Source: Escherichia coli (GTDB lineage Bacteria > Pseudomonadota > Gammaproteobacteria > Enterobacterales > Enterobacteriaceae). Taken from it: a DNA stretch of 64,000 nt. Location of the stretch: the NCBI RefSeq assembly GCF_029227855.1, contig NZ_CP074356.1, one strand, 5' to 3'. Shown one piece after another: positions 1-56,393 of this stretch; position 1 is the first letter of the stretch, and every line of letters begins with the position of its first letter. The translations under genes were made by a program, and so were the position numbers. Under the pieces are notes generated by a model. The model worked only from the letters and a program-made list of their open reading frames with translations, ran no database searches and was not told the DNA's origin.

Positions 1-1
1 C

Positions 2-2974
2 GCTGCGGACCGGATCATCCGCTGGTCCGATAACGACCAGACGTGGAGCCGTTTCACCTACGATGAACAGGGCCGGTGCGTGAATGTCACCGGGGCGGAG
101 GGCTATTACAACGCCACGCTGGACTATGGTGACGGCTGCACCACCGTGACGGACGGCAAGGGCATTCACCGTTATTACTATGATCCTGACGGCAATATTC
201 TGCGGGAAGCAGCGCCGGACGGCAGCACCACCACGTATGAATGGGATGAATTCCATCACCTGCTGGCCCGTCACTCCCCTGCCGGGCGGGTGGAGAAATT
301 TGAATACAACGCCGCACACGGTCAGTTAAGCCGTTACACGGCGGCAGACGGCGCGGAGTGGCAGTACCGCTATGATGAGCGCGGCCTGCTCAGCAACATC
401 ACCGACCCTGCCGGGCAGACGTGGACACAGCAGTGTGATGAACGCGGCCTGCCGGTAAGTCTGGTGTCGCCACAGGGCGAAGAGACCCGGCTGGCATACA
501 CCGCTCAGGGGCTGCTGTCGGGAATATTCCGCCAGGATGAACGGCGTCTGGGCATAGAGTACGACCACCACAACCGGCCGGAAACACTCACCGACGTGAT
601 GGGCCGTGAACACCACACCGAATACAGCGGTCACGACCTGCCGGTGAAGATGCGCGGCCCCGGCGGTCAGTCAGTGCGGTTGCAGTGGCAGCAGCACCAT
701 AAACTGAGTGGCCTTGAGCGCACTGGCACCGGCGCGGAAGGGTTCAGCTATGACCGCCACGGCAACCTGCTGGCCTGGACGGACGGCAATGGTGTTGTCT
801 GGACAATGGAGTACGGCCCGTTCGATTTGCCGGTGGCGCGAACGGACGGTGAAGGCCACCGCTGGCAGTACCGCTATGATAAAGACACGCTGCAACTGAC
901 AGAAGTCATTAACCCGCAGGGTGAGTCATATCTTTATGTTCTGGATAACTGCGGCCGGGTGACGGAAGAGCATGACTGGGGCGGCGTGGTCTGGCGTTAC
1001 CGCTATGACGCCGATGGCCTGTGTACCGCCAGGGTCAACGGCCTGGAGGAAACCATCCTCTACAGCCGGGACGACGCAGGCCGCCTGGCAGAAGTCATCA
1101 CGCCGGAAGGCAAAACGCAGTATGCGTATGACAAATCCGGCAGGCTGACGGGTATCTTCAGCCCGGACGGCACATCACAGCGCACCGGCTATGACGAACG
1201 CGGGCGGGTGAATGTCACCACTCAGGGCCGACGGGCCATTGAATACCACTACCCCGATGAACACACCGTCATCCGCTGTATCCTGCCACCGGAAGATGAA
1301 CGCGACAGACACCCCGGTGAATCCCTGCTGAAAACCACGTACCGCTACAACGCAGCCGGAGAACTGGCAGAGGTCATCCTGCCGGAGGATGAGACGCTGA
1401 CGTTCAGCCGTGATGAGGCAGGACGTGAAGTGCTCCGGCACAGTAACCGGGGTTTTGCCTGTGAGCAGGGCTGGAATGCAGCCGGTCAGCTTACCAGCCA
1501 GCGCGCCGGACTTTTCCCGGCAGAAGCCACATGGGGCGGGCTGCTCCCCTCACTGGTACGGGAGTACCGTTACGACAGCGCGGGCAATGTGTCGGCTGTC
1601 ACCAGCCGGGAAGATTACGGACGGGAAACTCGCCGGGAGTACCGGCTGGACCGGAACGGCCAGGTCACGGCGGTGACAGCCTCAGGCACCGGGCTGGGCT
1701 ATGGCGAAGGCGATGAGTCCTATGGCTATGACAGTTGTGGCTACCTGAAGGCGCAGTCTGCGGGCAGGCACCGGATAAGTGAAGAGACTGAGCGGTATGC
1801 CGGAGGCCACCGGCTGAAACAGGCCGGAAACACGCAGTATGACTATGACGCCGCAGGCCGGATGGTCAGCCGCACCAGACACCGTAACGGCTATCGCCCG
1901 GAAACAGAGCGGTTCCGGTGGGACAGCCGGGACCAGCTGACCGGGTATTGCAGCGCACAGGGTGAACAGTGGGAATACCGCCACGACGCCAGCGGCAGAC
2001 GGACGGAAAAACGCTGCGACCGGAAGAAAATCCGCTTCACGTACCTGTGGGACGGCGACAGTATTGCGGAAATCCGGGAATACCGCGATGATAAACTGTA
2101 CAGCGTAAGGCACCTGGTGTTTAACGGCTTTGAGCTGATAAGCCAGCAGTTTAGCCGGGTACGGCAGCCGCACCCGTCCGTGGCCCCGCAGTGGGTGACG
2201 CGGACGAATCATGCGGTGAGCGATCTGACGGGCCGTCCGCTGATGCTCTTTAACAGTGAAGGTAAAACCGTCTGGCGACCGGGACAGACCAGCCTGTGGG
2301 GGCTGGCACTCAGCCTGCCCGCGGACACCGGCTACCCGGACCCGCGCGGGGAACTGGACGCGGAAGCCGACCCCGGCCTGCTGTATGCAGGACAGTGGCA
2401 GGATGCGGAATCCGGGCTGTGCTATAACCGGTTCCGGTATTACGAGCCGGAAACAGGGATGTACCTGGTGAGTGATCCGCTGGGGTTGCTGGGGGGTGAG
2501 CAGACTTACCGGTATGTGCCGAATCCGTGTGGGTATGTTGATCCTTTGGGATTAGCAACATGTCCCATAATCAGACAACGGGTGCTGGCTAACCTTGAAG
2601 CCAGTCGGGCAGCAAGGGCTGCATCTAATTTTGGTAAGAAAAATATCTATGATTTTATCAAGGCAACTCAATCTGCTATCCCTGGCACCTCTATCCCAAA
2701 ATCTTTTGAGATTATAACTGCTAATGGTACTTTCTGGGTACACCCAAATGCTACAAAACATATGGCTGAATATTTGACTCGGAACGGTCTCTCACATTCA
2801 ACTTCTGTAGAGAGCCAAATAATGTTAACAAGTTTTCACGAAGCTGTAAGTTTGGCTAGTGCTCAAGGTATAAAGTATGAAGAAATGATGAATGTTGGCG
2901 GCTGGGAACTAGTATTTAGTCAAGCTAAATCTGACTCGGCTTTATCAGTTATTAAACATGCTCTTTATAAATGA
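2..2974 (+). CDS. Rhs-family polymorphic toxin, 5'-truncated by the window edge; YD-repeat core ending in a DPLGL motif, then a ~140-aa C-terminal toxin domain of unassigned family
   Basis: The reading frame is open from position 2 to the stop at 2974. Repeated YDxxGR(L/V) motifs run throughout, and the core ends with RYYEPETGMYLVSDPLGL...YVDPLGL followed by a lower-GC extension (ATCPIIRQ...KHALYK). Confidence 0.85.
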   Translation, partial: AADRIIRWSDNDQTWSRFTYDEQGRCVNVTGAEGYYNATLDYGDGCTTVTDGKGIHRYYYDPDGNILREAAPDGSTTTYEWDEFHHLLARHSPAGRVEKFEYNAAHGQLSRYTAADGAEWQYRYDERGLLSNITDPAGQTWTQQCDERGLPVSLVSPQGEETRLAYTAQGLLSGIFRQDERRLGIEYDHHNRPETLTDVMGREHHTEYSGHDLPVKMRGPGGQSVRLQWQQHHKLSGLERTGTGAEGFSYDRHGNLLAWTDGNGVVWTMEYGPFDLPVARTDGEGHRWQYRYDKDTLQLTEVINPQGESYLYVLDNCGRVTEEHDWGGVVWRYRYDADGLCTARVNGLEETILYSRDDAGRLAEVITPEGKTQYAYDKSGRLTGIFSPDGTSQRTGYDERGRVNVTTQGRRAIEYHYPDEHTVIRCILPPEDERDRHPGESLLKTTYRYNAAGELAEVILPEDETLTFSRDEAGREVLRHSNRGFACEQGWNAAGQLTSQRAGLFPAEATWGGLLPSLVREYRYDSAGNVSAVTSREDYGRETRREYRLDRNGQVTAVTASGTGLGYGEGDESYGYDSCGYLKAQSAGRHRISEETERYAGGHRLKQAGNTQYDYDAAGRMVSRTRHRNGYRPETERFRWDSRDQLTGYCSAQGEQWEYRHDASGRRTEKRCDRKKIRFTYLWDGDSIAEIREYRDDKLYSVRHLVFNGFELISQQFSRVRQPHPSVAPQWVTRTNHAVSDLTGRPLMLFNSEGKTVWRPGQTSLWGLALSLPADTGYPDPRGELDAEADPGLLYAGQWQDAESGLCYNRFRYYEPETGMYLVSDPLGLLGGEQTYRYVPNPCGYVDPLGLATCPIIRQRVLANLEASRAARAASNFGKKNIYDFIKATQSAIPGTSIPKSFEIITANGTFWVHPNATKHMAEYLTRNGLSHSTSVESQIMLTSFHEAVSLASAQGIKYEEMMNVGGWELVFSQAKSDSALSVIKHALYK

Positions 2975-3504
2975 CGATTATGCTTACATTAGAAAATGAA
3001 ACAAACTACAAAGATGTTGTTGTTAATATAGATGAATTTGTACCTTTTGATATAACTTTTGGAAAGGGGAGCGAACAGTGTTTGTACTGGAGAGGCGGCA
3101 ATGGTAAAAGTTCTTTGGTTGAAGTTGGGTTAAATATGTACAGCGGAGAAGTAAGTAACATCACACTAGCAAATATCGATTCAGGTGAAATTAACATTAC
3201 AGATGAGATGTTAGCCAACAACCTTCCTGAAATACAAGGGTCTGTTATATTTCAGACAAGCGAGTGGCTTAATAAAGACATTTCCGAATACTCAAACAGA
3301 TTTATTGATGATTTTGATTGCAATATCAAGTTAATAATTGGTAGTAATTACATTAAATTATTATTTAAAAAAGCAACAAATCCCATTTGTTATATCATTA
3401 ATAGGAATATAAGATTTGGTTTTTCTTTGAGTAGGGAACTTTCGACATTGGAAATATTAGACCTCAATCAAGAAAAATTAGATATTCTAAAGTTATTTAA
3501 ATAG
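2971..3504 (+). CDS. Putative cognate immunity protein for the upstream Rhs toxin domain
   Basis: A 177-aa ORF whose ATG overlaps the toxin stop (ATGA at 2971-2974). It is AT-rich and sits immediately downstream of the toxin, the usual toxin-immunity arrangement. Confidence 0.55.
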   Translation: MTIMLTLENETNYKDVVVNIDEFVPFDITFGKGSEQCLYWRGGNGKSSLVEVGLNMYSGEVSNITLANIDSGEINITDEMLANNLPEIQGSVIFQTSEWLNKDISEYSNRFIDDFDCNIKLIIGSNYIKLLFKKATNPICYIINRNIRFGFSLSRELSTLEILDLNQEKLDILKLFK

Positions 3505-3995
3505 TTTTAGTGTTTGAAACTTACCGAGAGATGATAGCTATGAATGAATACAAAAACATCCATCTTGGAGGAAACAATGGAATGTTAATCCATTAAAAAA
3601 CATACTTCAATATCTTTAGTGAAGAAAGAGTTGTATGAAAGAAATATATCTTATGTGAGCGACATGATGCATGCTAATTATATTATTGGCCGGAAATTTT
3701 ATGATGATAGCAAAAAGGAGGGGTTATTTCTGTAAGAATGGATATACCCGCAGGGTTTGAACCAGACATTTATTTGTTGAAGTCTAAGATCCAAATGGAA
3801 GCATTTATATCCCTCAGATATTATGCGTTGACGGGTTGATAAAGATACTTTTAGAGGGTTAATAAATGGAGAACGTATAATAAATCTCTTAAACAAACTA
3901 TAACCTGTACTAATGAAAAAAATGGGAATAGATAAGTTAATAGCCTATTCTAAAAATGGTAAAGTGGTTTTACTTCCAAAATAATGGAGTTTAGT

Positions 3996-4427
3996 ATGAA
4001 AATCGAAGCTAATTCCCTTACTCATCCCTATGACTACAACGCCTCACTGAACAATTATTTACATTATTTTGAGAATTTCTCTCGTAATGACTGGAATAAA
4101 GATTCATGTGGAGGATATTTTACTTTTAGAGATGATGACAGAGAGTGTGTTTTGTTTTTTGTGAATTATGGTGATAATTTTTCATTGCGCTATGATTGTA
4201 CACAAAGTTCTGATGGAATAGTGTCATGCTGGTATAGTAACCATGAAGATGATAAAATGAATATCATCGTCGATGCTGATACAGAACAATTTATCCCTTT
4301 AGGTTCTTGCTTACCTCCTGATATTACTTTATCAGTAATAAAAGATTTTTTCAAAAATCCTTTAGAGAAATCAAAAAAAGTAAAATGGATGAATGCAGAT
4401 GACATTGACTGGTCATCTGTGTATTAA
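3996..4427 (+). CDS. Hypothetical protein, possible orphan immunity protein
   Basis: An ORF of ~143 aa (from MKIEANS; an upstream ATG at 3984 is also possible) with AT-rich composition, lying in the island downstream of the Rhs toxin. No recognisable catalytic motif. Confidence 0.4.
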   Translation: MKIEANSLTHPYDYNASLNNYLHYFENFSRNDWNKDSCGGYFTFRDDDRECVLFFVNYGDNFSLRYDCTQSSDGIVSCWYSNHEDDKMNIIVDADTEQFIPLGSCLPPDITLSVIKDFFKNPLEKSKKVKWMNADDIDWSSVY

Positions 4428-5289
4428 AGTTGGATTGGATAATTATCTGTTTCAAAAATCATTAAATTTAGAACCTATCTGTTCAACAGAGCTGCCTTGA
4501 ACAGCAGGTTCTTTTATGATGTCCAGGAGCGAATATGCCTGTGATGTCTGGCACTCAGCATCTGACTGACCTGGACTACTGATCCTACTCACACAGGGAG
4601 CTAGACCTGGAAGCAACCTACTGTAAGCAGTGCAGTAGCAGCCCACCTCACATCAGTCCTTGCAAGGTGTGGGCCTTTGTGATCTTGCTCTGTATTGCTG
4701 AGATCCTCAGGAAGGACTCGAAATTTAATCAGGAAGGCCGTTGCTAAAAATCAAAAAATAAATTCAAGAGCAATTTCTAAAACTTTTGAATCTACTGTAT
4801 CGGATGAGGTTTTCACTCCTTTCCAAAAGGTGAGTTTTCAAGCATTCAAGTTTCTGTTATGACCAAAACTTCACCATTTAACACTAATCCGAGTATTATG
4901 TTACCATGAAGAAAAAAGATATTAGATTTGCAATATCCATTAACTCCAACTCAAGTAAGATAGAATTAATGGAAAAATTAAAAACATAATCCCAGGGCTT
5001 ATTGAAATAACTCCCAGTGCATTAAGAGAAGAAAAAACATGGTAGTTATTGAAGATAATGATCTTTATGACTCTATAAAAGCAGAGGGAGTTGATGGATG
5101 GATGTATTATAAATTCATATTATCCATATTCCCATTAAAGGGAGTAGACACAACATTAGAATATCAACGGAAATTATCTTTTCTTTTCTTAAAGAAATTA
5201 AAAGATGCGGGTCTGTTAGGTGAACTTATATGCGAGGATGATTTTCATGACTGATGACCTCTACATATATCCTCAGTTCGTGGCTGGTA

Positions 5290-5631
5290 TTACATGATCT
5301 GACAGGGAAAGATCGTAGCGAAATCAAAAAAGACGTGGATTTCCCGGAAGCCGGTGAAGACACGGCGCTCTGCGACAAGGAGACTAAACCGCCGAGGATA
5401 GCCCAGGGCAGCAGCAACGTTTTTATCAACAATCAGCCTGCCGCACGCCAGGGAGACAAACTGGAGTGCAGTGCGGCGATCGTGGAAGGTTCGCCGGACG
5501 TCTTTATTGGGGGTGAGCAGGTCACCTATCTGGATATCCAGCCGGAGTTCCCGCCGTGGCAGAGAATGATCCTGGGGGGAATAACGATAGCCAGCTATCT
5601 TCTGCCGCCAGCGCAGGGAAAGATCACGTAA
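5290..5631 (+). pseudogene. PAAR-domain fragment, probably the C-terminal part of the N-terminal PAAR region of a T6SS-type Rhs or PAAR protein
   Basis: A GC-rich segment inside the 5254..5631 ORF encodes IAQGSSNVFINNQPAARQGDKLECSAAIVEGSPDVFIGG, matching the PAAR motif pattern. The composition shifts abruptly near 5290, and no credible N-terminus or Rhs core follows. Confidence 0.5.
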
Positions 5632-6141: not shown

Positions 6142-6840
6142 TTGAAGGTAACGTGGAGTGGTGGGCGGAGCAGCCTGCCCGCAGACACAGACTACCCGGA
6201 CCCGCGCGGGGAGCGGGACGCGGAAGCCGACCCCGGCCTGCTGTATGCAGGACAGTGGCAGGATGCGGAATCCGGACTGTGCTATAACCGGTTCCGGTAT
6301 TACGAGCCGGAAACCGGGATGTACCTGGTGAGTGATCCCCTGGGGTTGCTGGGGGGTGAGCAGACTTACCGGTATGTGCCTAATCCTAGTGGGTATGTTG
6401 ATCCTCTGGGATTAGCAACGTGTCCTATACTCAGACAGTGGGCGCTGACTAACCTTGAAGCCAGTCGGGCAGCAAGGGCTGCATCTAATTTTGGTAAGCC
6501 TCTGGTCCAGCGAAATAAAACGATTGGCGATAAAGTAAGGGATATGATTGCCAAAGAGAGGGGAACCACTCTAATTGAACAAAATTATAGAGTGACAGGA
6601 GGATTAAAGCGTATTGACGTTGTTGATGGAGTAACGGGTATAGAATCTAAAGTCGATCGAACAGGGTTAACAACCCGAGTACGGCAAGAGGTAGCGCGGG
6701 ATATTAAGATTTTGAGAAGTGAGCAACTTGATCAAATTGAATGGGTGTTTACAAGAAGTTCAACTACAGGGAAGATTGGGCCAACTAAACCACTTGAAGA
6801 TCTTTTAAATAAACATGGTATACCGATTATTTATCGATAA
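6142..6840 (+). CDS. Orphan Rhs C-terminal module: core-end repeat (DPLGL) plus an alternative toxin domain, possibly a PD-(D/E)xK-like nuclease
   Basis: Positions ~6176-6500 are near-identical to 2310-2630 (the end of the first Rhs core plus 26 codons). The sequences then diverge into a different C-terminal domain containing RIDVVDGVTGIESKVDRTG. The reported ATG at 6142 is probably not the native start. Confidence 0.7.
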   Translation: MKVTWSGGRSSLPADTDYPDPRGERDAEADPGLLYAGQWQDAESGLCYNRFRYYEPETGMYLVSDPLGLLGGEQTYRYVPNPSGYVDPLGLATCPILRQWALTNLEASRAARAASNFGKPLVQRNKTIGDKVRDMIAKERGTTLIEQNYRVTGGLKRIDVVDGVTGIESKVDRTGLTTRVRQEVARDIKILRSEQLDQIEWVFTRSSTTGKIGPTKPLEDLLNKHGIPIIYR

Positions 6841-6851
6841 GGAGTGATAGT

Positions 6852-7409
6852 GTGAAACTCAAACCGATTGGTGACTTTTTAAACAAAAATGGGTTTATAA
6901 AAAATGGTAACAATGATTTTTATAAAGTTCATGATAAGTTTGTAAATTGTATAAATTTTCAAAAAAAGAGTACAGGTGATATTTTTTTTATAAACACAGG
7001 TGTTCATCCTGTGTTCGAAAATTTTTGCAATGAACCACCGAAAAAAGAAATAGATTGTTACATCCGTAACCGTGTGTGTGATGGACTAAGTATATCTTTG
7101 CTGCATTCTTTTGAAGGTAGTGAGTTTGTTATCAGTGAGATAAAAAACAAAGCGTTTTGTTTTTTTGAATACTTTGATTCATTGAATAAAATATTCGATG
7201 CTATTCGTGTTGTAGATATTGAAGAGAGAAATATTTGCGATGAGCTAAGTGGTGTAAGCAGCGTAAGATTAGCTTTGATGTGTATGAACTACCAGTATGA
7301 GAAAAAAAAATTTAGCCTTGTTTCTGATTTTGCGAACTATGGTCTTGCTATATCTAGAGGCCCGGTACCGAAAAAAGCATTTAAGGATATGATAAAAATA
7401 ACAGAGTGA
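6852..7409 (+). CDS. Putative immunity protein for the orphan Rhs toxin module
   Basis: A 185-aa ORF with a GTG start 12 bp after the toxin stop, preceded by AGGAG at 6841-6845. AT-rich. Confidence 0.5.
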   Translation: MKLKPIGDFLNKNGFIKNGNNDFYKVHDKFVNCINFQKKSTGDIFFINTGVHPVFENFCNEPPKKEIDCYIRNRVCDGLSISLLHSFEGSEFVISEIKNKAFCFFEYFDSLNKIFDAIRVVDIEERNICDELSGVSSVRLALMCMNYQYEKKKFSLVSDFANYGLAISRGPVPKKAFKDMIKITE

Positions 7410-7419
7410 TACCTAATCC

Positions 7420-7650
7420 GGTGTAATACTTGCTGCCTGTGTACCGCGAAGATTAACGGCCGGGAGGAAACTATTCTCTACAACCGGGACGCCACAGGCC
7501 GCCTGGCAGAAGTCATCACGCCGGAAGGCAAAACGCAGTATGCGTATGACAAATCCGGCAGGCTGACGGGTATCTTCAGCCCGGACGACACATCACAGCG
7601 CACCGGCTATGAAGAACGCGGGCGGGTGAATGTCACCACTCAGGGCAGGG
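7420..7650 (+). pseudogene. Internal Rhs core fragment
   Basis: About 215 bp nearly identical to 1021-1230 of the first Rhs core (encoding ...EETILY..RLAEVITPEGKTQYAYDKSGRLTGIFSPD...). Homology is lost at the cagggaaagatca junction. Confidence 0.6.
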
Positions 7651-7739: not shown

Positions 7740-8940
7740 TTATTGCTTATACATGATCAAATACTCCTTACATAATTAAGGAGAACAAAATGGAACTTAA
7801 AAAATTGATGGAACATATTTCTATTATCCCCGATTACAGACAAGCCTGGAAAGTGGAACATAAATTATCGGATATTCTGCTGTTGACTATTTGTGCCGTT
7901 ATTTCGGGTGCAGAAGGCTGGGAAGATATAGAGGATTTTGGGGAAACACATCTCGATTTTTTGAAGCAATATGGTGATTTTGATAATGGTATTCCTGTTC
8001 ACGATACCATCGCCAGAGTTATATCCTGTATCAGTCCTTCAAAATTTCACGAGTGTTTTATTAACTGGATGCGAGATTGCCATACTTCAGATGATAAAGA
8101 CGTCATCGCAATTGATGGAAAAACACTCCGGCATTCTTATGACAAGAGTCGCCGCAAGGGAGCGATTCATGTCATTAGTGCGTTCTCAACAATGCACAGT
8201 CTGGTCATCGGACAGATCAGGACGGATGAGAAATCCAATGAAATTACAGCTATCCCTGAACTTCTTAACATGCTGGATATTAAAGGAAAAATCATCACAA
8301 CTGATGCGATGGGTTGCCAGAAAGATATTGCAGAGAAGATACAAAAACAGGGCGGTGATTATTTATTCGCTGTAAAAGGAAACCAGGGGCGGCTAAATAA
8401 AGCCTTCGAGGAAAAATTTCCGCTGAAAGAATTAAATAATCCAGAGCATGACAGTTACGCCATTAGTGAAAAGAGTCACGGCAGAGAAGAAATCCGTCTT
8501 CATATTGTTTGCGATGTCCCTGATGAACTTATTGATTTCACGTTTGAATGGAAAGGACTGAAGAAATTATGCGTGGCAGTCTCTTTTCGGTCAATAATAG
8601 CAGAACAAAAGAAAGAGCCAGAAATGACGGTCAGATATTATATCAGTTCTGCTGATTTAACCGCAGAGAAGTTCGCCACAGCAATCCGAAACCACTGGCG
8701 CGTGGAGAATAAGCTGCACTGGCGTCTGGACGTGGTAATGAATGAAGACGACTGCAAAATAAGAAGAGGAAACGCCGCAGAATTATTTTCAGGGATACGG
8801 CACATCGCTATTAATATTTTAACGAATGATAAGGTATTCAAGGCAGGGTTAAGACGTAAGATGCGAAAAGCAGCCATGGACAGAAACTATCTCGCGTCAG
8901 TCCTTGCGGGGAGCGGGCTTTCGTAATCTTGCCCTGCGTT
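7740..8940 (+). mobile_element. ISAs1-family (H-repeat) insertion element; boundaries approximate
   Basis: Contains one intact transposase ORF. The terminal inverted repeats could not be delimited by eye. Confidence 0.4.
7790..8926 (+). CDS. ISAs1-family transposase (H-repeat-associated protein; YhhI/YdcC/YbfD-like)
   Basis: A 378-aa ORF ([32 protein letters not shown]...[31 protein letters not shown]) recognised as the H-repeat protein family found inside Rhs elements. Confidence 0.85.
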
Positions 8941-51709: not shown

Positions 51710-52201
51710 TTACTCTGCACAAGCATCAGGCAATCCAGCTCCAATATTTGTTATAAAATAATGCGTAACATTAATTTCACCAACAAAAAAAAGGTTTACG
51801 CTATCCCCTTGCCCTGGTATTTTACCATATTTACACCACACTTTTTTTGTATCTGGATCATTCTCTGATACGATTTTCGCCACTTGTTCCCTGGCCCTCA
51901 CCGTCAATGTTTTCTTAAACCTCCCCCCATCATCGATTGTTAGGGAAAAATAAGAAAAAAAATAATCACCTTCTACATTTGTGGATATTGATATATCCAC
52001 CGCTACATGCGGAAAAAAATCTGGGAGCCATGTAAAAACCCCATCACTTTCTGGTATTGCCATATAGTTTATGTAATGCTTACTTACAAGAGATTCATCT
52101 TTGTGTAAATAAAGATAAGTAGTCACGCATAAAAAAACAACGATTATAATAGCAAAAATAAATATTACCATCTTTGAGATGTTACTTGAGATAGCCAGCA
52201 T
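51710..52201 (-). CDS. Putative immunity protein for the rhsD-locus Rhs toxin, with an N-terminal transmembrane helix
   Basis: An AT-rich ORF of 153-163 aa directly downstream of the Rhs stop, overlapping it or separated by ~10 bp depending on the start. Hydrophobic segment [21 protein letters not shown]. Confidence 0.55.
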
Positions 52202-55200
52202 CTTGTAAAGCCTTTATCGTTTTTTTATGCTCTGGATTAATATAATCAATACATCTATTTGAGCAATCTTGTGTTAATGGACATGTCAACCCATGTTCAT
52301 TTACAGCCAAGTCTTTTTTATTATCTTCAATCATCTCAGAATGGGATAACTTTACTTTTCTGCCGTACATACCGAACATATTTAACCCGTAATCTCTAAT
52401 CTCTTTTTCATAACCCAGCCCTTTCGCTGATCGGCTAACACCAGCGTCATTTAATTTAGACACTCGACAAAATGCCATACAATGGAAAAATTGATCAGTC
52501 CCACCTAAATTTAATCTCTTCATATCATCATAAGTATCAGATAATATATCCCATGCTCTTTGATGGTTTAGTTGTTCTTTTTTTCGCATTAACGCTACAT
52601 CTGCAGGACTTAACCCTAATGGATCAATACCATTCACCGGATTCAGCGGATACGCATACAGACTCCATCCCCCCGCCAGCCCAATCGGGTCCTGAGCAAT
52701 ATATCGTCCCAGCAACGGATTGTAGTACCGGTTCCGGTTATAATACAGCCCTGACTCCTCATCGTGTTGCTGCCCTGGCAGACGGTACGGCTGGTGCAGG
52801 TGATGCGGGTTTTCCTCATTCAGCAGGTTTCCCCACTCATCATACTCCCCGCTCCACGCCGTATTGCCGTCTTCGCTGATGAGCGCCAGCGGCAGCCCCC
52901 GGTGGTCACAGTGATAAAGATGAATTTTTCGCTCAGGTAAATAAACCGGCTCTATCTGTGCCGCCAGCCGCTCCACCGTCAGCCCGCACTGTGCCAGCCA
53001 CTGGCGGCTTTCACTGCTCACGCGGTCTGCCCGGATTTCCCCCTCCAGCCTGTCCAGCAGCCGCACCAGTTCAGCCGGGAACACCACGCCGTGTCCGTCC
53101 TCGCTCCCTTCCTGCTGGAGCTTCTCCGCCAGGCTGCGGCGCTGCGCTTTCTCCCGCTCGCCGTTCTCTGTCTCGACCCGGATGAGCGGCGTGAAGCTTC
53201 CCGGCTGGTACACCGTCTGGATACGCGTGGTGTCGGTCTGTACTGTCGCCAGCCTGTCGCCGTCCCACCCGTACCACGTTACCTCCGGTTTACGCGACAG
53301 CGACATCCACCCCGTCAGGTCACGCTCCCGCCGCCATACCCGTTTCGCCATTCGCCATCCCAGCGGGTCGTAGAGGTAGCGGCTCTCGACCAGTGGCTCG
53401 CCATGCTGTATCCGCGTGTAGAACACCAGGCGGTGCTGGCTGTCGTAGTGGTAGTGGTGGGTCCGCTCGTCGTCCGTCCGTATCACACCCGCCGGGATGC
53501 GGTCCGTCTTCTCTGTCAGCCTGCCGTATTCATCGTGGCGGTAGACATAGTGCGCATCCTCCGCGATGCGGTTATCCGGCCACGCCGTGAGTGTACTGTC
53601 CGGGTGCAGCTCCGGGTCCGGCAGCCGGTTGCCCGCCGGGTCCGTGGCATACGGGATGCGGATGTCCAGGTCCGGTGCGAGGGTGCGTACACTCGCCAGC
53701 CTGCCCGTGGCACTGTAGCCGTATTCCCGCGTCTGTCGCGGGCCGCTGATGCGCACAAGGTCGCCGTTGTCATTCCACCCGTAGTCACGGTCATACACCA
53801 GGCTGTTCAGGTGCTGGCTCTGTAACTGGCCTGCAGGGGTGTATGTGCTGGTCAGTTCGTATGCGGCATTACTGCCTGCCATGCTGCCAAAGCTGCGCAC
53901 CGTTTCTCTGTGCAGGCGGTCGCGCGCGTACTCCAGCAGCGGCGTGTCGCCCAGCTTCATGCCCGCCAGATAACCGCTACCGTAGGTCAGCCACTCCACC
54001 GGCGGCAGGCTGTCCGGCGTGACGCGGTTTGCCAGCCCCTGTTCGTTGTATGCCTGTTTCGTCTCATGCTGCCACAGCAGTTCCCCCGTCTCCGGGTTCT
54101 TCACCGTCTGGTGCTCACTGGTCAGACGGCCTTTATCGTCATAGCCGTAGTGGACCGCCACACGGTGGCCTTCGCTCAGGTGGCTGATTTCTCTCAGCCA
54201 GCCGTGGCCATCATACTGCCACTGCTCTGCCGGTTCGCCGTTCACCGTGCGGTGAGTGAGGCGGTCCGATTCGTCGTAGTGCCAGAGGGTGACAAGCCCC
54301 TCATCTTCACTCTGCGTGAGTTTTCCGGTCAGGTCATAATGATAACGTTGCGTCCGCCCGTCAAAGCCGCTCTGCTGTACCAGCCGGTCCAGTGCGTCGT
54401 AACGGAAGGCGCTGTCACTGCCGTTCTCGTTGGTCAGCGTGGCGACACGTCCTGCCGCGTCATACTCCATACTGCGCGTCAGCCCGCCCTGCGTGGTGCT
54501 GACCGCTTTTCCCCACGCATCGTACTGTGTCTCGCTCCGGTTGCCGCCCGGGGTGATAACGGCAGTCAGGTCGCCTGCGGCGTTGTACTCATACTGCGTT
54601 TCACGGCCCTGTGCGTCTTTCACCGAGGTTAACCGGCCACGGTTGTCATAGTGGCGGTAAAGGCTGATGCCTTCCTCGCGGTGGACCGCCGTCATCTGGC
54701 CGAAGCGGTCATACTCATAGCGGGTCTGGTAGCCCGAGCAGTCGGTGAACGCCAGCAACTGACCGTAGCGGCTCCAGGTCATCTGCCGGGTGCTGCCCGT
54801 CGCATCTGTTGTCGTGGCCGGTAATTCACTGTGCGGATTATCATAAGCATACCGGATGACGTCCCCACTGCGCGATGTCTCCGATACCAGCCTGTCCCGC
54901 TCATCATACGCCCGGCGGCTCTCCAGCCCGTCCGGGTACACCACCGCCGTCACCAGGTTCCCGTCGTTATAGTAAAATTTCGTCTCCCGCCCGTCCGGCG
55001 TGGTGATGTCCGTGATGTCGCCTGACACCACATTCAGACCGTACTCTGTCCGCCGTCCCGCCGCGTCCGTCTGCGCCGTAAGCCGCCCCACCGGGTCATA
55101 CCCGCTGCGCGTGACGCTGCCGTCCGCCAGTTCTTTTTTCACCACCCGCTTCAGCCCGGCCCCGCCTTCTGTATGCAGCACCTCACGCCGGTTCAGGCTG

Positions 55201-56393
55201 TCCGTGACGGTGATGCGGTCCTGCTCATACTGGTAGCGGTAACTCAGGCCTGCCGGGTTCAGCTGCTCCACCACCCGCCCCGCATCGTCGTAGCGGTAGC
55301 GCATCTCCGGCCTTCCCGCGTAACGGTGCGCCACCATCCGGCCCGGGTGCTGCGCGTCATACGTGAAAGCGCGCACCTGCGTATTGCTGCGGTCATATAC
55401 CGCCAGCAGTTCACCGGCTTCCGTATACGTGTACCGCACCAGTGGCGCACCGGGCAGGCTCTCCGGGTATGCCGGGTCGTGCATCAGCCACACCGCCGAA
55501 AGACGGATGCCCCTGTCGGGGCCGTATTCGGTACCGGGCAGTGTGTCGGGGAACGCTGAGGCTGAAAGAGGGCGGGGGGTGTCAGGGGAAAATAAGGAAG
55601 CGGTGTGCTGTTTACGGGCCTCTTCCGCCCGCTGCGCCTGCGTGGTCAGCACCAGACGGAACTCCCGCCCGGCACCGTCCGTCACGCCGGTGATTTCCCC
55701 GGCCAGGTCACCGGCGGCCTCACGCCGGTACGTCAGCGTCTGCCCGAAGCGGTCCGCCAGCCCGGTAAGCACCCGGTACGGCGGCAGCGGCGCTGGCAGT
55801 ACGTCCTCAGTGCCCGGCACCCGCTCTGACCACCCCAGTATCCACCACGGTCCCTGTGCGCTGTTGGTCGCCAGGTAAAGATGCGGGCTTAACCGGATAT
55901 CCGGCGGCAGCGACGCCCACAGCCGTGCCAGCGTGTGGCCGTCCGGCTGCGCTGCCTTACCACCGCGAACCAGCCACATTGACTCGCTGCGGCTGTACAC
56001 CGCCCCCCCCGGCAGCAGCGGCTCAAAGTGAATGCTCCGTCCGCCGTTGTCGTTGAGTACCAGTGCATCATCGCGTATCTGTAAGCGGATATCAGAAGGC
56101 GCTTTCCAGCCGGGGCCAAAAATCCCCACCGGCGCAGGCGTCTTCGTCCGGTAGCTGCTGTAGGTGCGGGAGAGAATGAACGGCAGCGGGCCGGGCAGCG
56201 CAAGGTCCGTCTCGCCGGGCAGCACCTTCGCCCCCAGCAGCGGATTTACCGGGTTGCCCGAAGTCATCCTGCCCGGACACACCGAGCACGCCACGCCGGT
56301 GGGCGCGCCAATTCTTACACCTGCCGAACCCTGGACAATGGGACCGCCATACTGAGTCATATCTCCCTGACGCGCCGCTGGTTTTCCGCTCAT
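52182..56393 (-). CDS. Full-length Rhs polymorphic toxin at the K-12 rhsD position, with a Cys/His-rich C-terminal toxin domain of unassigned family
   Basis: 1403 aa with a PAAR-like N-terminus [33 protein letters not shown], extensive YD repeats, a DPIGL...DPLGL core end, then a ~145-aa tail with a compositional drop. It lies next to ybbP, as rhsD does in K-12. Confidence 0.9.

Follow-up and report, generated by a model that had tools for sequence, protein, structure and literature searches.

Overview of the locus

The window analyzed here is a 64,000-nucleotide stretch of an Escherichia coli chromosome (contig NZ_CP074356.1) in the region between cusS and nfrBA, and the locus of interest lies at its very start: the 3′ end of a gene for an Rhs protein, the variable C-terminal tail of that protein, and a short open reading frame (ORF) directly downstream (Table 1). 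By homology to a solved structure and by structure prediction, the tail is assigned to the tRNA nucleases typified by the C-terminal toxin of the contact-dependent inhibition (CDI) protein CdiA of E. coli EC869, and the ORF is its putative immunity gene. The Rhs/YD-repeat frame enters the window on the + strand at position 2, and its translation meets no stop before the TGA at 2972-2974. All 991 Rhs codons visible in the window are intact. Two copies of the DPLGL motif (2474-2488 and 2540-2554) are separated by 17 residues and correspond to the DPxGx18DPxG autoproteolysis motif of the enterobacterial type; past the second copy, the tail comprises 139 aa (codons 2555-2971). The GC content is 0.62 in the Rhs core, 0.51 in the linker that begins the tail, intermediate between core and toxin, 0.37 in the nuclease domain, and 0.31 in the ORF read from position 2971.

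The identity of the carrier is suggested by a closely related genome. In strain JNEC-KY178, an intact PAAR-Rhs gene for a 1609-aa protein ends in a stretch with 100% identity to window positions 1-2974. Its product matches the YD_repeat, RHS_core, Rhs_assc_core, and PAAR models (PAAR E-value 5e-11) and also bears a prePAAR motif (AARLGDEIQH) and hydrophobic, transmembrane helices. Upstream of that gene lie (i) a gene for VgrG and (ii) a gene for a DcrB/DUF1795 protein of the Eag chaperone type (DcrB PF08786, E-value 1.7e-27). In the window translation, no VENN motif precedes the toxin, which instead follows YD repeats and DPLGL. The window protein is thus not a CdiA, since it has neither a VENN motif nor FHA repeats, even though it shares a toxin cassette with CdiA proteins.

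Table 1. Features at and near the rhs locus, in window coordinates
Feature	Coordinates	Strand	Basis or remarks
Rhs shell, C-terminal 851 codons	2..2554	+	5′ part beyond window edge; ends DPLGL-x17-DPLGL
Linker, 28 aa, ATCPIIRQRVLANLEASRAARAASNFGK	2555..2638	+	Common to the downstream orphan rhs-CT; outside the nuclease fold
Predicted EC869-type BECR-fold tRNA nuclease domain and stop codon	2639..2974	+	Tail residues 29-139, Rhs ~1499-1609; PDB homology, AlphaFold2 model
Tail H69 / Rhs H1539 (His codon), counterpart of EC869 His216	2759..2761	+	Inside the invariant motif PNATKHM
Tail H135 / Rhs H1605 (His codon), counterpart of EC869 His281	2957..2959	+	Inside the C-terminal motif VIKHALYK
Putative immunity gene rhsI, CdiI(EC869) family, 174 aa	2980..3504	+	PDB homology, AlphaFold2 model, RefSeq start
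AT-rich ORF, 147 aa, GC 0.32	3984-4427		Past the immunity gene, before the orphan rhs-CT
Orphan rhs-CT fragment	6142-6840		Core end, DPLGL, common linker, different 113-aa tail
DUF4304 gene	6852-7409		RefSeq annotation; after the orphan rhs-CT

Family and fold of the toxin domain

BECR (Barnase/EndoU/Colicin/RelE), with two three-stranded antiparallel sheets and a pair of flanking helices, is the scaffold to which the tail is assigned. In a phmmer search of PDB sequences, tail residues 15-139 align with residues 182-306 of 7vmc_B, the last 125 residues of a chain described as “tRNA nuclease CdiA” (E-value 8.1e-41). Identity to this chain is 60% overall and ~63-65% across the nuclease domain (73/113 columns). 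An AlphaFold2 model of the toxin, built with 18 homologues, has a predicted local distance difference test score (pLDDT) of 91.2 and a β3-α-α-β3 topology, with its elements in the order E-E-E-H-H-E-E-E (E, strand; H, helix). Foldseek places 7vmc_B first for this model, with a template modeling (TM) score of 0.93, a root-mean-square deviation of 1.4 Å, and an E-value of 5.6e-15. ParE toxins come next in the list (E-value ~0.1), which supports the BECR/RelE-like fold class. In the crystal structure 7VMC, CdiA-CT and CdiI of E. coli EC869 are in complex with EF-Tu (PMC9071432). Together, the sequence match and the modeled fold indicate that the tail is a close homologue of CdiA-CT(EC869) and a predicted BECR-fold tRNA nuclease of its class. 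The same matches rule out a non-toxic accessory domain, which had been considered as an alternative identity for the tail.

Profile libraries give no hint of this relationship. Scans of the tail and of the downstream ORF against Pfam, NCBIfam, and PADLOC returned no match, the lone Pfam line (LisH_2, E-value 0.12) being noise. That neither Pfam nor NCBIfam holds a model matching either protein explains why an earlier sequence-only reading of this DNA assigned no motif to the tail and described it as a toxin domain of unassigned family and unknown function. The same reading had proposed structure prediction with AlphaFold and Foldseek on the residues after DPLGL as a check; carried out here, that search recovered the solved toxin 7vmc_B, which together with the sequence match contradicts the unassigned status. 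A new toxin family would agree with the lack of Pfam, NCBIfam, and PADLOC models and with generic RefSeq labels for the proteins, but the strong homology in both sequence and fold to a solved and characterized toxin/immunity pair already refutes it, and the idea retains practically no credibility.

Conservation of functional residues

The functional residues of CdiA-CT(EC869) have been delineated by mutagenesis and crystallography: the H281A variant is catalytically dead, H216A and R271A lower toxicity, and R263A has little effect, while domain II of EF-Tu is contacted, at Phe218 and Glu259, through Y220, L221, Q235, M237, and Y284 (PMC9071432). The numbering of the 7VMC chain was converted to that of the paper with an offset of 21, which is validated by the fact that all nine named residues show the expected letters at the mapped positions. 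Equivalents of both H216 and H281 are present in the window toxin (Table 1) and are invariant in family alignments of 18 and 77 sequences. K215, the lysine preceding the first histidine, is also identical here and is invariant in the 18-sequence alignment. All five EF-Tu-contact residues (Y220, L221, Q235, M237, and Y284) are identical in the window toxin. As a separate observation, strain FWSEC0006 carries KHTLYK in place of KHALYK (equivalent to window 2960-2962), a change in the residue beside the C-terminal catalytic histidine in an otherwise intact Rhs.

The immunity gene

The ORF downstream of rhs matches the third chain of the same complex, 7vmc_C (“Contact-dependent inhibitor I”), with an E-value of 3.4e-18 and 33% identity over 134 columns in phmmer against PDB. 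Its AlphaFold2 model is mostly β (pLDDT 77), and in Foldseek it superposes on 7vmc_C with a TM score of 0.81 over 173 columns (E-value 1.7e-14), the sole hit at E ≤ 0.001. While a word-indexed search with the protein returned near-identical Escherichia proteins only, distant homologues were recovered through the neighbors of toxin homologues. Three unrelated loci encode such proteins (171-181 aa, 29-31% identity), each time as the next gene after a toxin homologue: a CdiA orphan array (E-value 2e-19), an array in Faucicola mancuniensis (3e-21), and a locus in a third genome (4e-9). On sequence and model evidence, then, the ORF product falls within the immunity family of CdiI(EC869), itself a two-sheet β-sandwich, and neutralization of the adjacent toxin is predicted. 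The possibility that the ORF is a chance AT-rich frame was entertained and is ruled out by the 7VMC match.

The start of the gene is probably not the one suggested by its most conspicuous feature. In the longer reading, the ORF spans 2971-3504 and encodes 177 aa, with the ATG at 2971-2973 overlapping the Rhs stop by 4 bp (aATGa); read from ATG 2980, it is separated from rhs by a gap of 5 nt. RefSeq places the start at 2980 (WP_001370340.1, 174 aa), and the three distant homologues begin with “ML(K/T)L”, which aligns with the ATG at 2980. Since homologues and RefSeq both favor this codon, 9 nt downstream, the ATGA overlap is probably not the initiation site. The sequence-only reading had singled out a 177-aa AT-rich ORF and a 4-bp ATGA overlap as hallmarks of a toxin–immunity arrangement. 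The ORF was found as described, and the pairing itself is backed by homology to the solved toxin/immunity/EF-Tu complex; the overlap does exist in the DNA, but it likely plays no part in initiation.

In RefSeq, the Rhs protein is labelled only “RHS repeat-associated core domain-containing protein”, and the product of the downstream ORF only “hypothetical protein”. Newer RefSeq records name WP_001370340.1 “RNA-binding protein” where older ones have “hypothetical protein”, and no NCBIfam model matches it. The newer name looks misleading, given that the homologue of known structure acts in immunity and has the toxin, not RNA, as its binding partner.

Linker and cassette boundary

A second, incomplete rhs copy farther along the window locates the junction of the toxin cassette. 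Main rhs positions 2311-2638 and orphan rhs positions 6171-6498 are 94% identical, and the two copies diverge abruptly past 2638 and 6498 (…ASNFGK), so that the polymorphic cassette starts at 2639. The linker thus has a direct counterpart at 6415-6498 of the orphan, and the cassette junction sits 28 aa downstream of the DPLGL motif that is usually taken as the boundary. The limits are the same in the crystal structure: modeled residues 175-285 of 7VMC correspond to tail residues 28-139, in agreement with the limits set independently by the orphan comparison. The tail of ~140 aa beyond DPLGL described in the sequence-only reading is present with exactly the residues quoted and measures 139 aa. 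The start given there, 2552, is indeed the last leucine codon of DPLGL, but the toxin proper begins ~28 residues further on.

The linker also varies in length among strains. A 9-bp unit, GCAAGGGCT, located at window 2609-2623 as GCA GCAAGGGCT GCA, encodes the linker residues “RAA” and varies in copy number with the frame kept. It occurs once in the window, twice in strain A11 (Rhs of 1612 aa), and 12 times in strain UC4316 ((RAA)n), where the long array is possibly an assembly artefact. Tandem Repeats Finder detected no array in the linker of the window, repeat expansion being confined to the other strains.

Family breadth and distribution in E. coli

A profile of the toxin domain retrieves 895 cluster representatives (clusters at 50% identity) with an E-value cutoff of 1e-3; tightening it to 1e-10 leaves 654. 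In 150 of the 150 matches listed, the domain forms the extreme C terminus of its carrier, and carriers range from ~100 to 3400 aa. Among 77 carriers scanned with Pfam, the accompanying domains include RHS repeats (11-13), PT-VENN/CdiA (6), PT-TG (5), PT-HINT (3), and LXG (3); phage Mu-F, DUF4280, and eCIS core domains occur in two carriers each, and SpvB/TcdB and TPS domains are also found. Judged from these sequence matches, the EC869-type domain is a typical, widespread polymorphic-toxin cassette for which the libraries hold no model.

Within E. coli, DNA at least 99% identical to the toxin and immunity region (2639-3504) occurs in 135 of 5426 complete genomes (~2.5%), always on the chromosome and in a single copy, and many of the genomes with this Rhs module are human clinical isolates. 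In another 35 E. coli genomes, toxin DNA of ~70% identity is labelled either “cdiA: contact-dependent inhibition effector tRNA nuclease” or, alternatively, “VENN motif pre-toxin domain-containing protein”; the former label supports the tRNA nuclease assignment independently. The 170 carriers of this toxin class therefore divide into 135 with the Rhs version and 35 with the CdiA version, and none has both.

The integrity of rhs was judged in nine sampled carrier genomes. Three of them (JNEC-KY178, A11, and FWSEC0006) have an intact gene, five have one broken by a nonsense codon, and in the ninth (UC4316) the module is displaced to an orphan position. The nonsense mutations fall at three sites: codon 740 (three strains), codon 950, and codon 198. 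In the window frame, codon 740 corresponds to 362-364 (CAG to TAG) and codon 950 to 992-994, with codon 198 lying upstream; positions 362 and 992 begin sense codons here. By comparison, eight of the nine genomes encode one and the same immunity protein, WP_001370340.1. Because five of the nine sampled genomes have a premature rhs stop, the toxin is evidently not deployed in every carrier.

Such a pattern raises the question of whether the locus is chiefly a retained immunity gene beside a decaying toxin, kept by selection for protection against the EC869-class toxins of neighboring cells. Three separate nonsense sites (198, 740, and 950) among the eight genomes with the module in the main rhs position, the displacement in the ninth, and the near-uniform immunity protein would all fit this explanation, and orphan CdiI(EC869)-like genes have been proposed to be kept for protection in Salmonella Typhi (PMC9086364). 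However, the 991 codons in the window are intact, as are the copies in A11 and FWSEC0006. Retention for immunity is accordingly rated quite improbable as the chief account of the locus; it concerns deployment of the toxin rather than its identity and is compatible with a toxin-bearing Rhs effector gene.

Relationship to known systems

The closest known system is the CdiA-CT/CdiI pair of enterohaemorrhagic E. coli EC869 (Wang et al. 2022, PMC9071432; Jones et al. 2017 PNAS, via the former). The toxin domains are 65% identical and share the BECR fold as predicted here (TM score 0.93), both histidines, and the EF-Tu-contact residues; the immunity proteins are homologous over their full length (~30% identity, TM score 0.81), and in both systems the immunity gene is directly downstream of the toxin. 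The main differences lie in the carrier, which in the window is probably a PAAR-Rhs protein of type VI secretion (T6SS) and not a CdiA protein of the type V system (T5SS). The window protein has neither the VENN motif nor the ~170-aa cytoplasm-entry domain present in the CdiA version, and only the 28-aa linker follows DPLGL. Cross-protection with CdiI(EC869) is doubtful because the immunity protein has diverged.

In gene order, the locus resembles the vgrG-eagR(DUF1795)-PAAR-Rhs-CT effector modules that Ma et al. 2017 described in E. coli (via PMC6730261): the closest genomes have VgrG, DcrB/DUF1795, PAAR-Rhs, immunity, and orphan CT/immunity cassettes in succession. The table and text of PMC6730261 give domains for Rhs-CT1, CT3, and CT5 only (metallopeptidase, REase-3, and Toxin_55, respectively). 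CT3-CT8 are described there by putative DNase or RNase class, and the terms “tRNase” and “CdiA” are absent.

Two further comparisons involve toxins with the same fold. Rhs2-SciX of Salmonella Typhimurium (bioRxiv 10.64898/2026.05.10.723254) is likewise a T6SS Rhs protein with a BECR-fold putative RNase that binds EF-Tu and an immunity protein resembling CdiI. Unlike the window toxin, it belongs to the Ntox47 sequence family (closest PDB entry 5T86), and its immunity protein has an unrelated fold. CdiA-CT(NC101), CdiA-CT(Kp342), and CdiA-CT(EC3006) also share the BECR fold and cleave tRNA in the acceptor stem, with EF-Tu being used by NC101 and Kp342. They differ in having no detectable sequence similarity, unrelated immunity proteins, and another mode of EF-Tu docking.

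Proposed mechanism

Based on established Rhs biology, the Rhs shell would enclose the C-terminal region, and the aspartyl-protease motif DPLGL-x17-DPLGL would cut after the second DPLGL. The fragment freed in this way would be 139 aa long and consist of the 28-aa linker and the 111-aa nuclease domain. Delivery is expected to proceed through the T6SS on VgrG with the help of the Eag chaperone, as for other prePAAR Rhs proteins. Delivery of this kind fits the tail, which has no counterpart of the ~170-aa entry domain of the CdiA version.

Once in the target cell, the nuclease may dock on domain II of EF-Tu, with EF-Ts and GTP completing the scaffold, by analogy with the EC869 toxin (PMC9071432). 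It would then cut the 3′ acceptor stem of particular tRNAs, bringing translation to a stop. The EC869 toxin cleaves tRNA-Gln and tRNA-Asn between nucleotides 71 and 72 and is stimulated by EF-Tu, EF-Ts, and GTP (PMC9071432). In the producing cell, the β-sandwich immunity protein would presumably cover the active site and thereby afford protection, as in the EC869 complex (PMC9071432).

Strength of the assignment

Taken as a whole, the locus is probably the 3′ end of a T6SS PAAR-Rhs effector gene with an EC869-type tRNase and its immunity gene, with EF-Tu-assisted cleavage predicted by homology. Several observations weigh against this interpretation. (i) The N-terminal half of Rhs, vgrG, eag, and such T6SS core genes as may exist fall beyond the window, and their presence is deduced from a genome that is identical over the shared 2974 bases. 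(ii) R271 of EC869 faces an alanine in the HMMER alignment, with a lysine one position later, although the MAFFT family alignment puts this lysine in the arginine column. (iii) R263 of EC869 is a glycine here. (iv) Overall, 35% of the domain residues differ from EC869, and tRNA specificity and cofactor dependence could differ with them. (v) No Shine-Dalgarno sequence was seen before either ATG (2971 or 2980). (vi) A promoter/terminator scan of 2300-4100 found no promoter-like site before the immunity gene, and only one site overall against six expected by chance. (vii) Premature rhs stops occur in more than half of the sampled genomes, as described above.

Points (ii) to (iv) bear on an alternative in which the fold and family are as assigned and the biochemistry is different: the domain might cleave other tRNAs or other RNA, or might act without EF-Tu or EF-Ts, the EF-Tu-contact residues being merely structural. 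Besides the substituted residues, including the two arginines, the EF-Tu-binding BECR toxins of CDI systems are known to vary in substrate and factor use (PMC9071432; PMC5737660), and the low identity of the immunity proteins (29-33%) suggests a diverged surface. On the other hand, all five EF-Tu contacts and both key histidines are identical, and the model deviates from the crystal structure by only 1.4 Å. Altered biochemistry is thus deemed unlikely, and EF-Tu-assisted acceptor-stem cleavage remains the favored prediction for the window toxin.

Other features of the window

The orphan rhs-CT fragment downstream of the main locus ends in a different tail of 113 aa. Pfam gives no match for this tail, nor does any PDB sequence match it below an E-value of 0.05; at the level of sequence, this toxin really lacks a family assignment. 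The AT-rich ORF that precedes this fragment, at 3984-4427, has no match in NCBIfam, PADLOC, or PDB and gives a weak Pfam hint of Imm1 (E-value 0.15). Possibly, it is an orphan immunity gene left stranded.

Remnants of Rhs genes are scattered through the same region. The PAAR-domain fragment encoded at 5254-5631 shares 95% identity with the PAAR region that the main rhs has in a related genome, and a 212-bp core fragment at 7435-7646 shares 94% with window 1017-1228. Next comes a gene for an ISAs1-family transposase (7790-8926). A second full-length Rhs ORF, of 1403 aa, lies on the − strand at 52182-56393. It carries a DPLGL of its own and ends in an unrelated tail rich in cysteine.

Implications

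That Rhs and CdiA proteins share C-terminal toxins has been known in principle since 2011 (PMC3150448). A search of the literature available found no description of an Rhs-borne EC869-type toxin or of WP_001370340, with the proviso that Jones et al. 2017 might mention Rhs homologues. It is conceivable, though on balance somewhat doubtful, that this locus represents the first described EC869-class, EF-Tu/EF-Ts-activated tRNase on a T6SS PAAR-Rhs protein lacking the cytoplasm-entry domain, that its immunity gene is kept for defense, and that the Rhs and CdiA routes exclude each other. The latter two elements are suggested by the repeated, independent rhs nonsense mutations next to an identical immunity protein and by the absence of Rhs/CdiA co-occurrence in the 170 carriers.

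The assignment gives a pair previously described as hypothetical a specific and testable mechanism, namely EF-Tu-assisted cleavage of the tRNA acceptor stem. It also illustrates that one toxin cassette rides on T5SS, T6SS, type VII (LXG), and phage-like carriers. General understanding of Rhs or CDI biology is unchanged, and the interest of the locus resides in the correction of its annotation and in the pattern of rhs inactivation with immunity kept. Pfam and NCBIfam hold no model for either the toxin or the immunity protein despite the crystal structure, and a family model would mend thousands of annotations.

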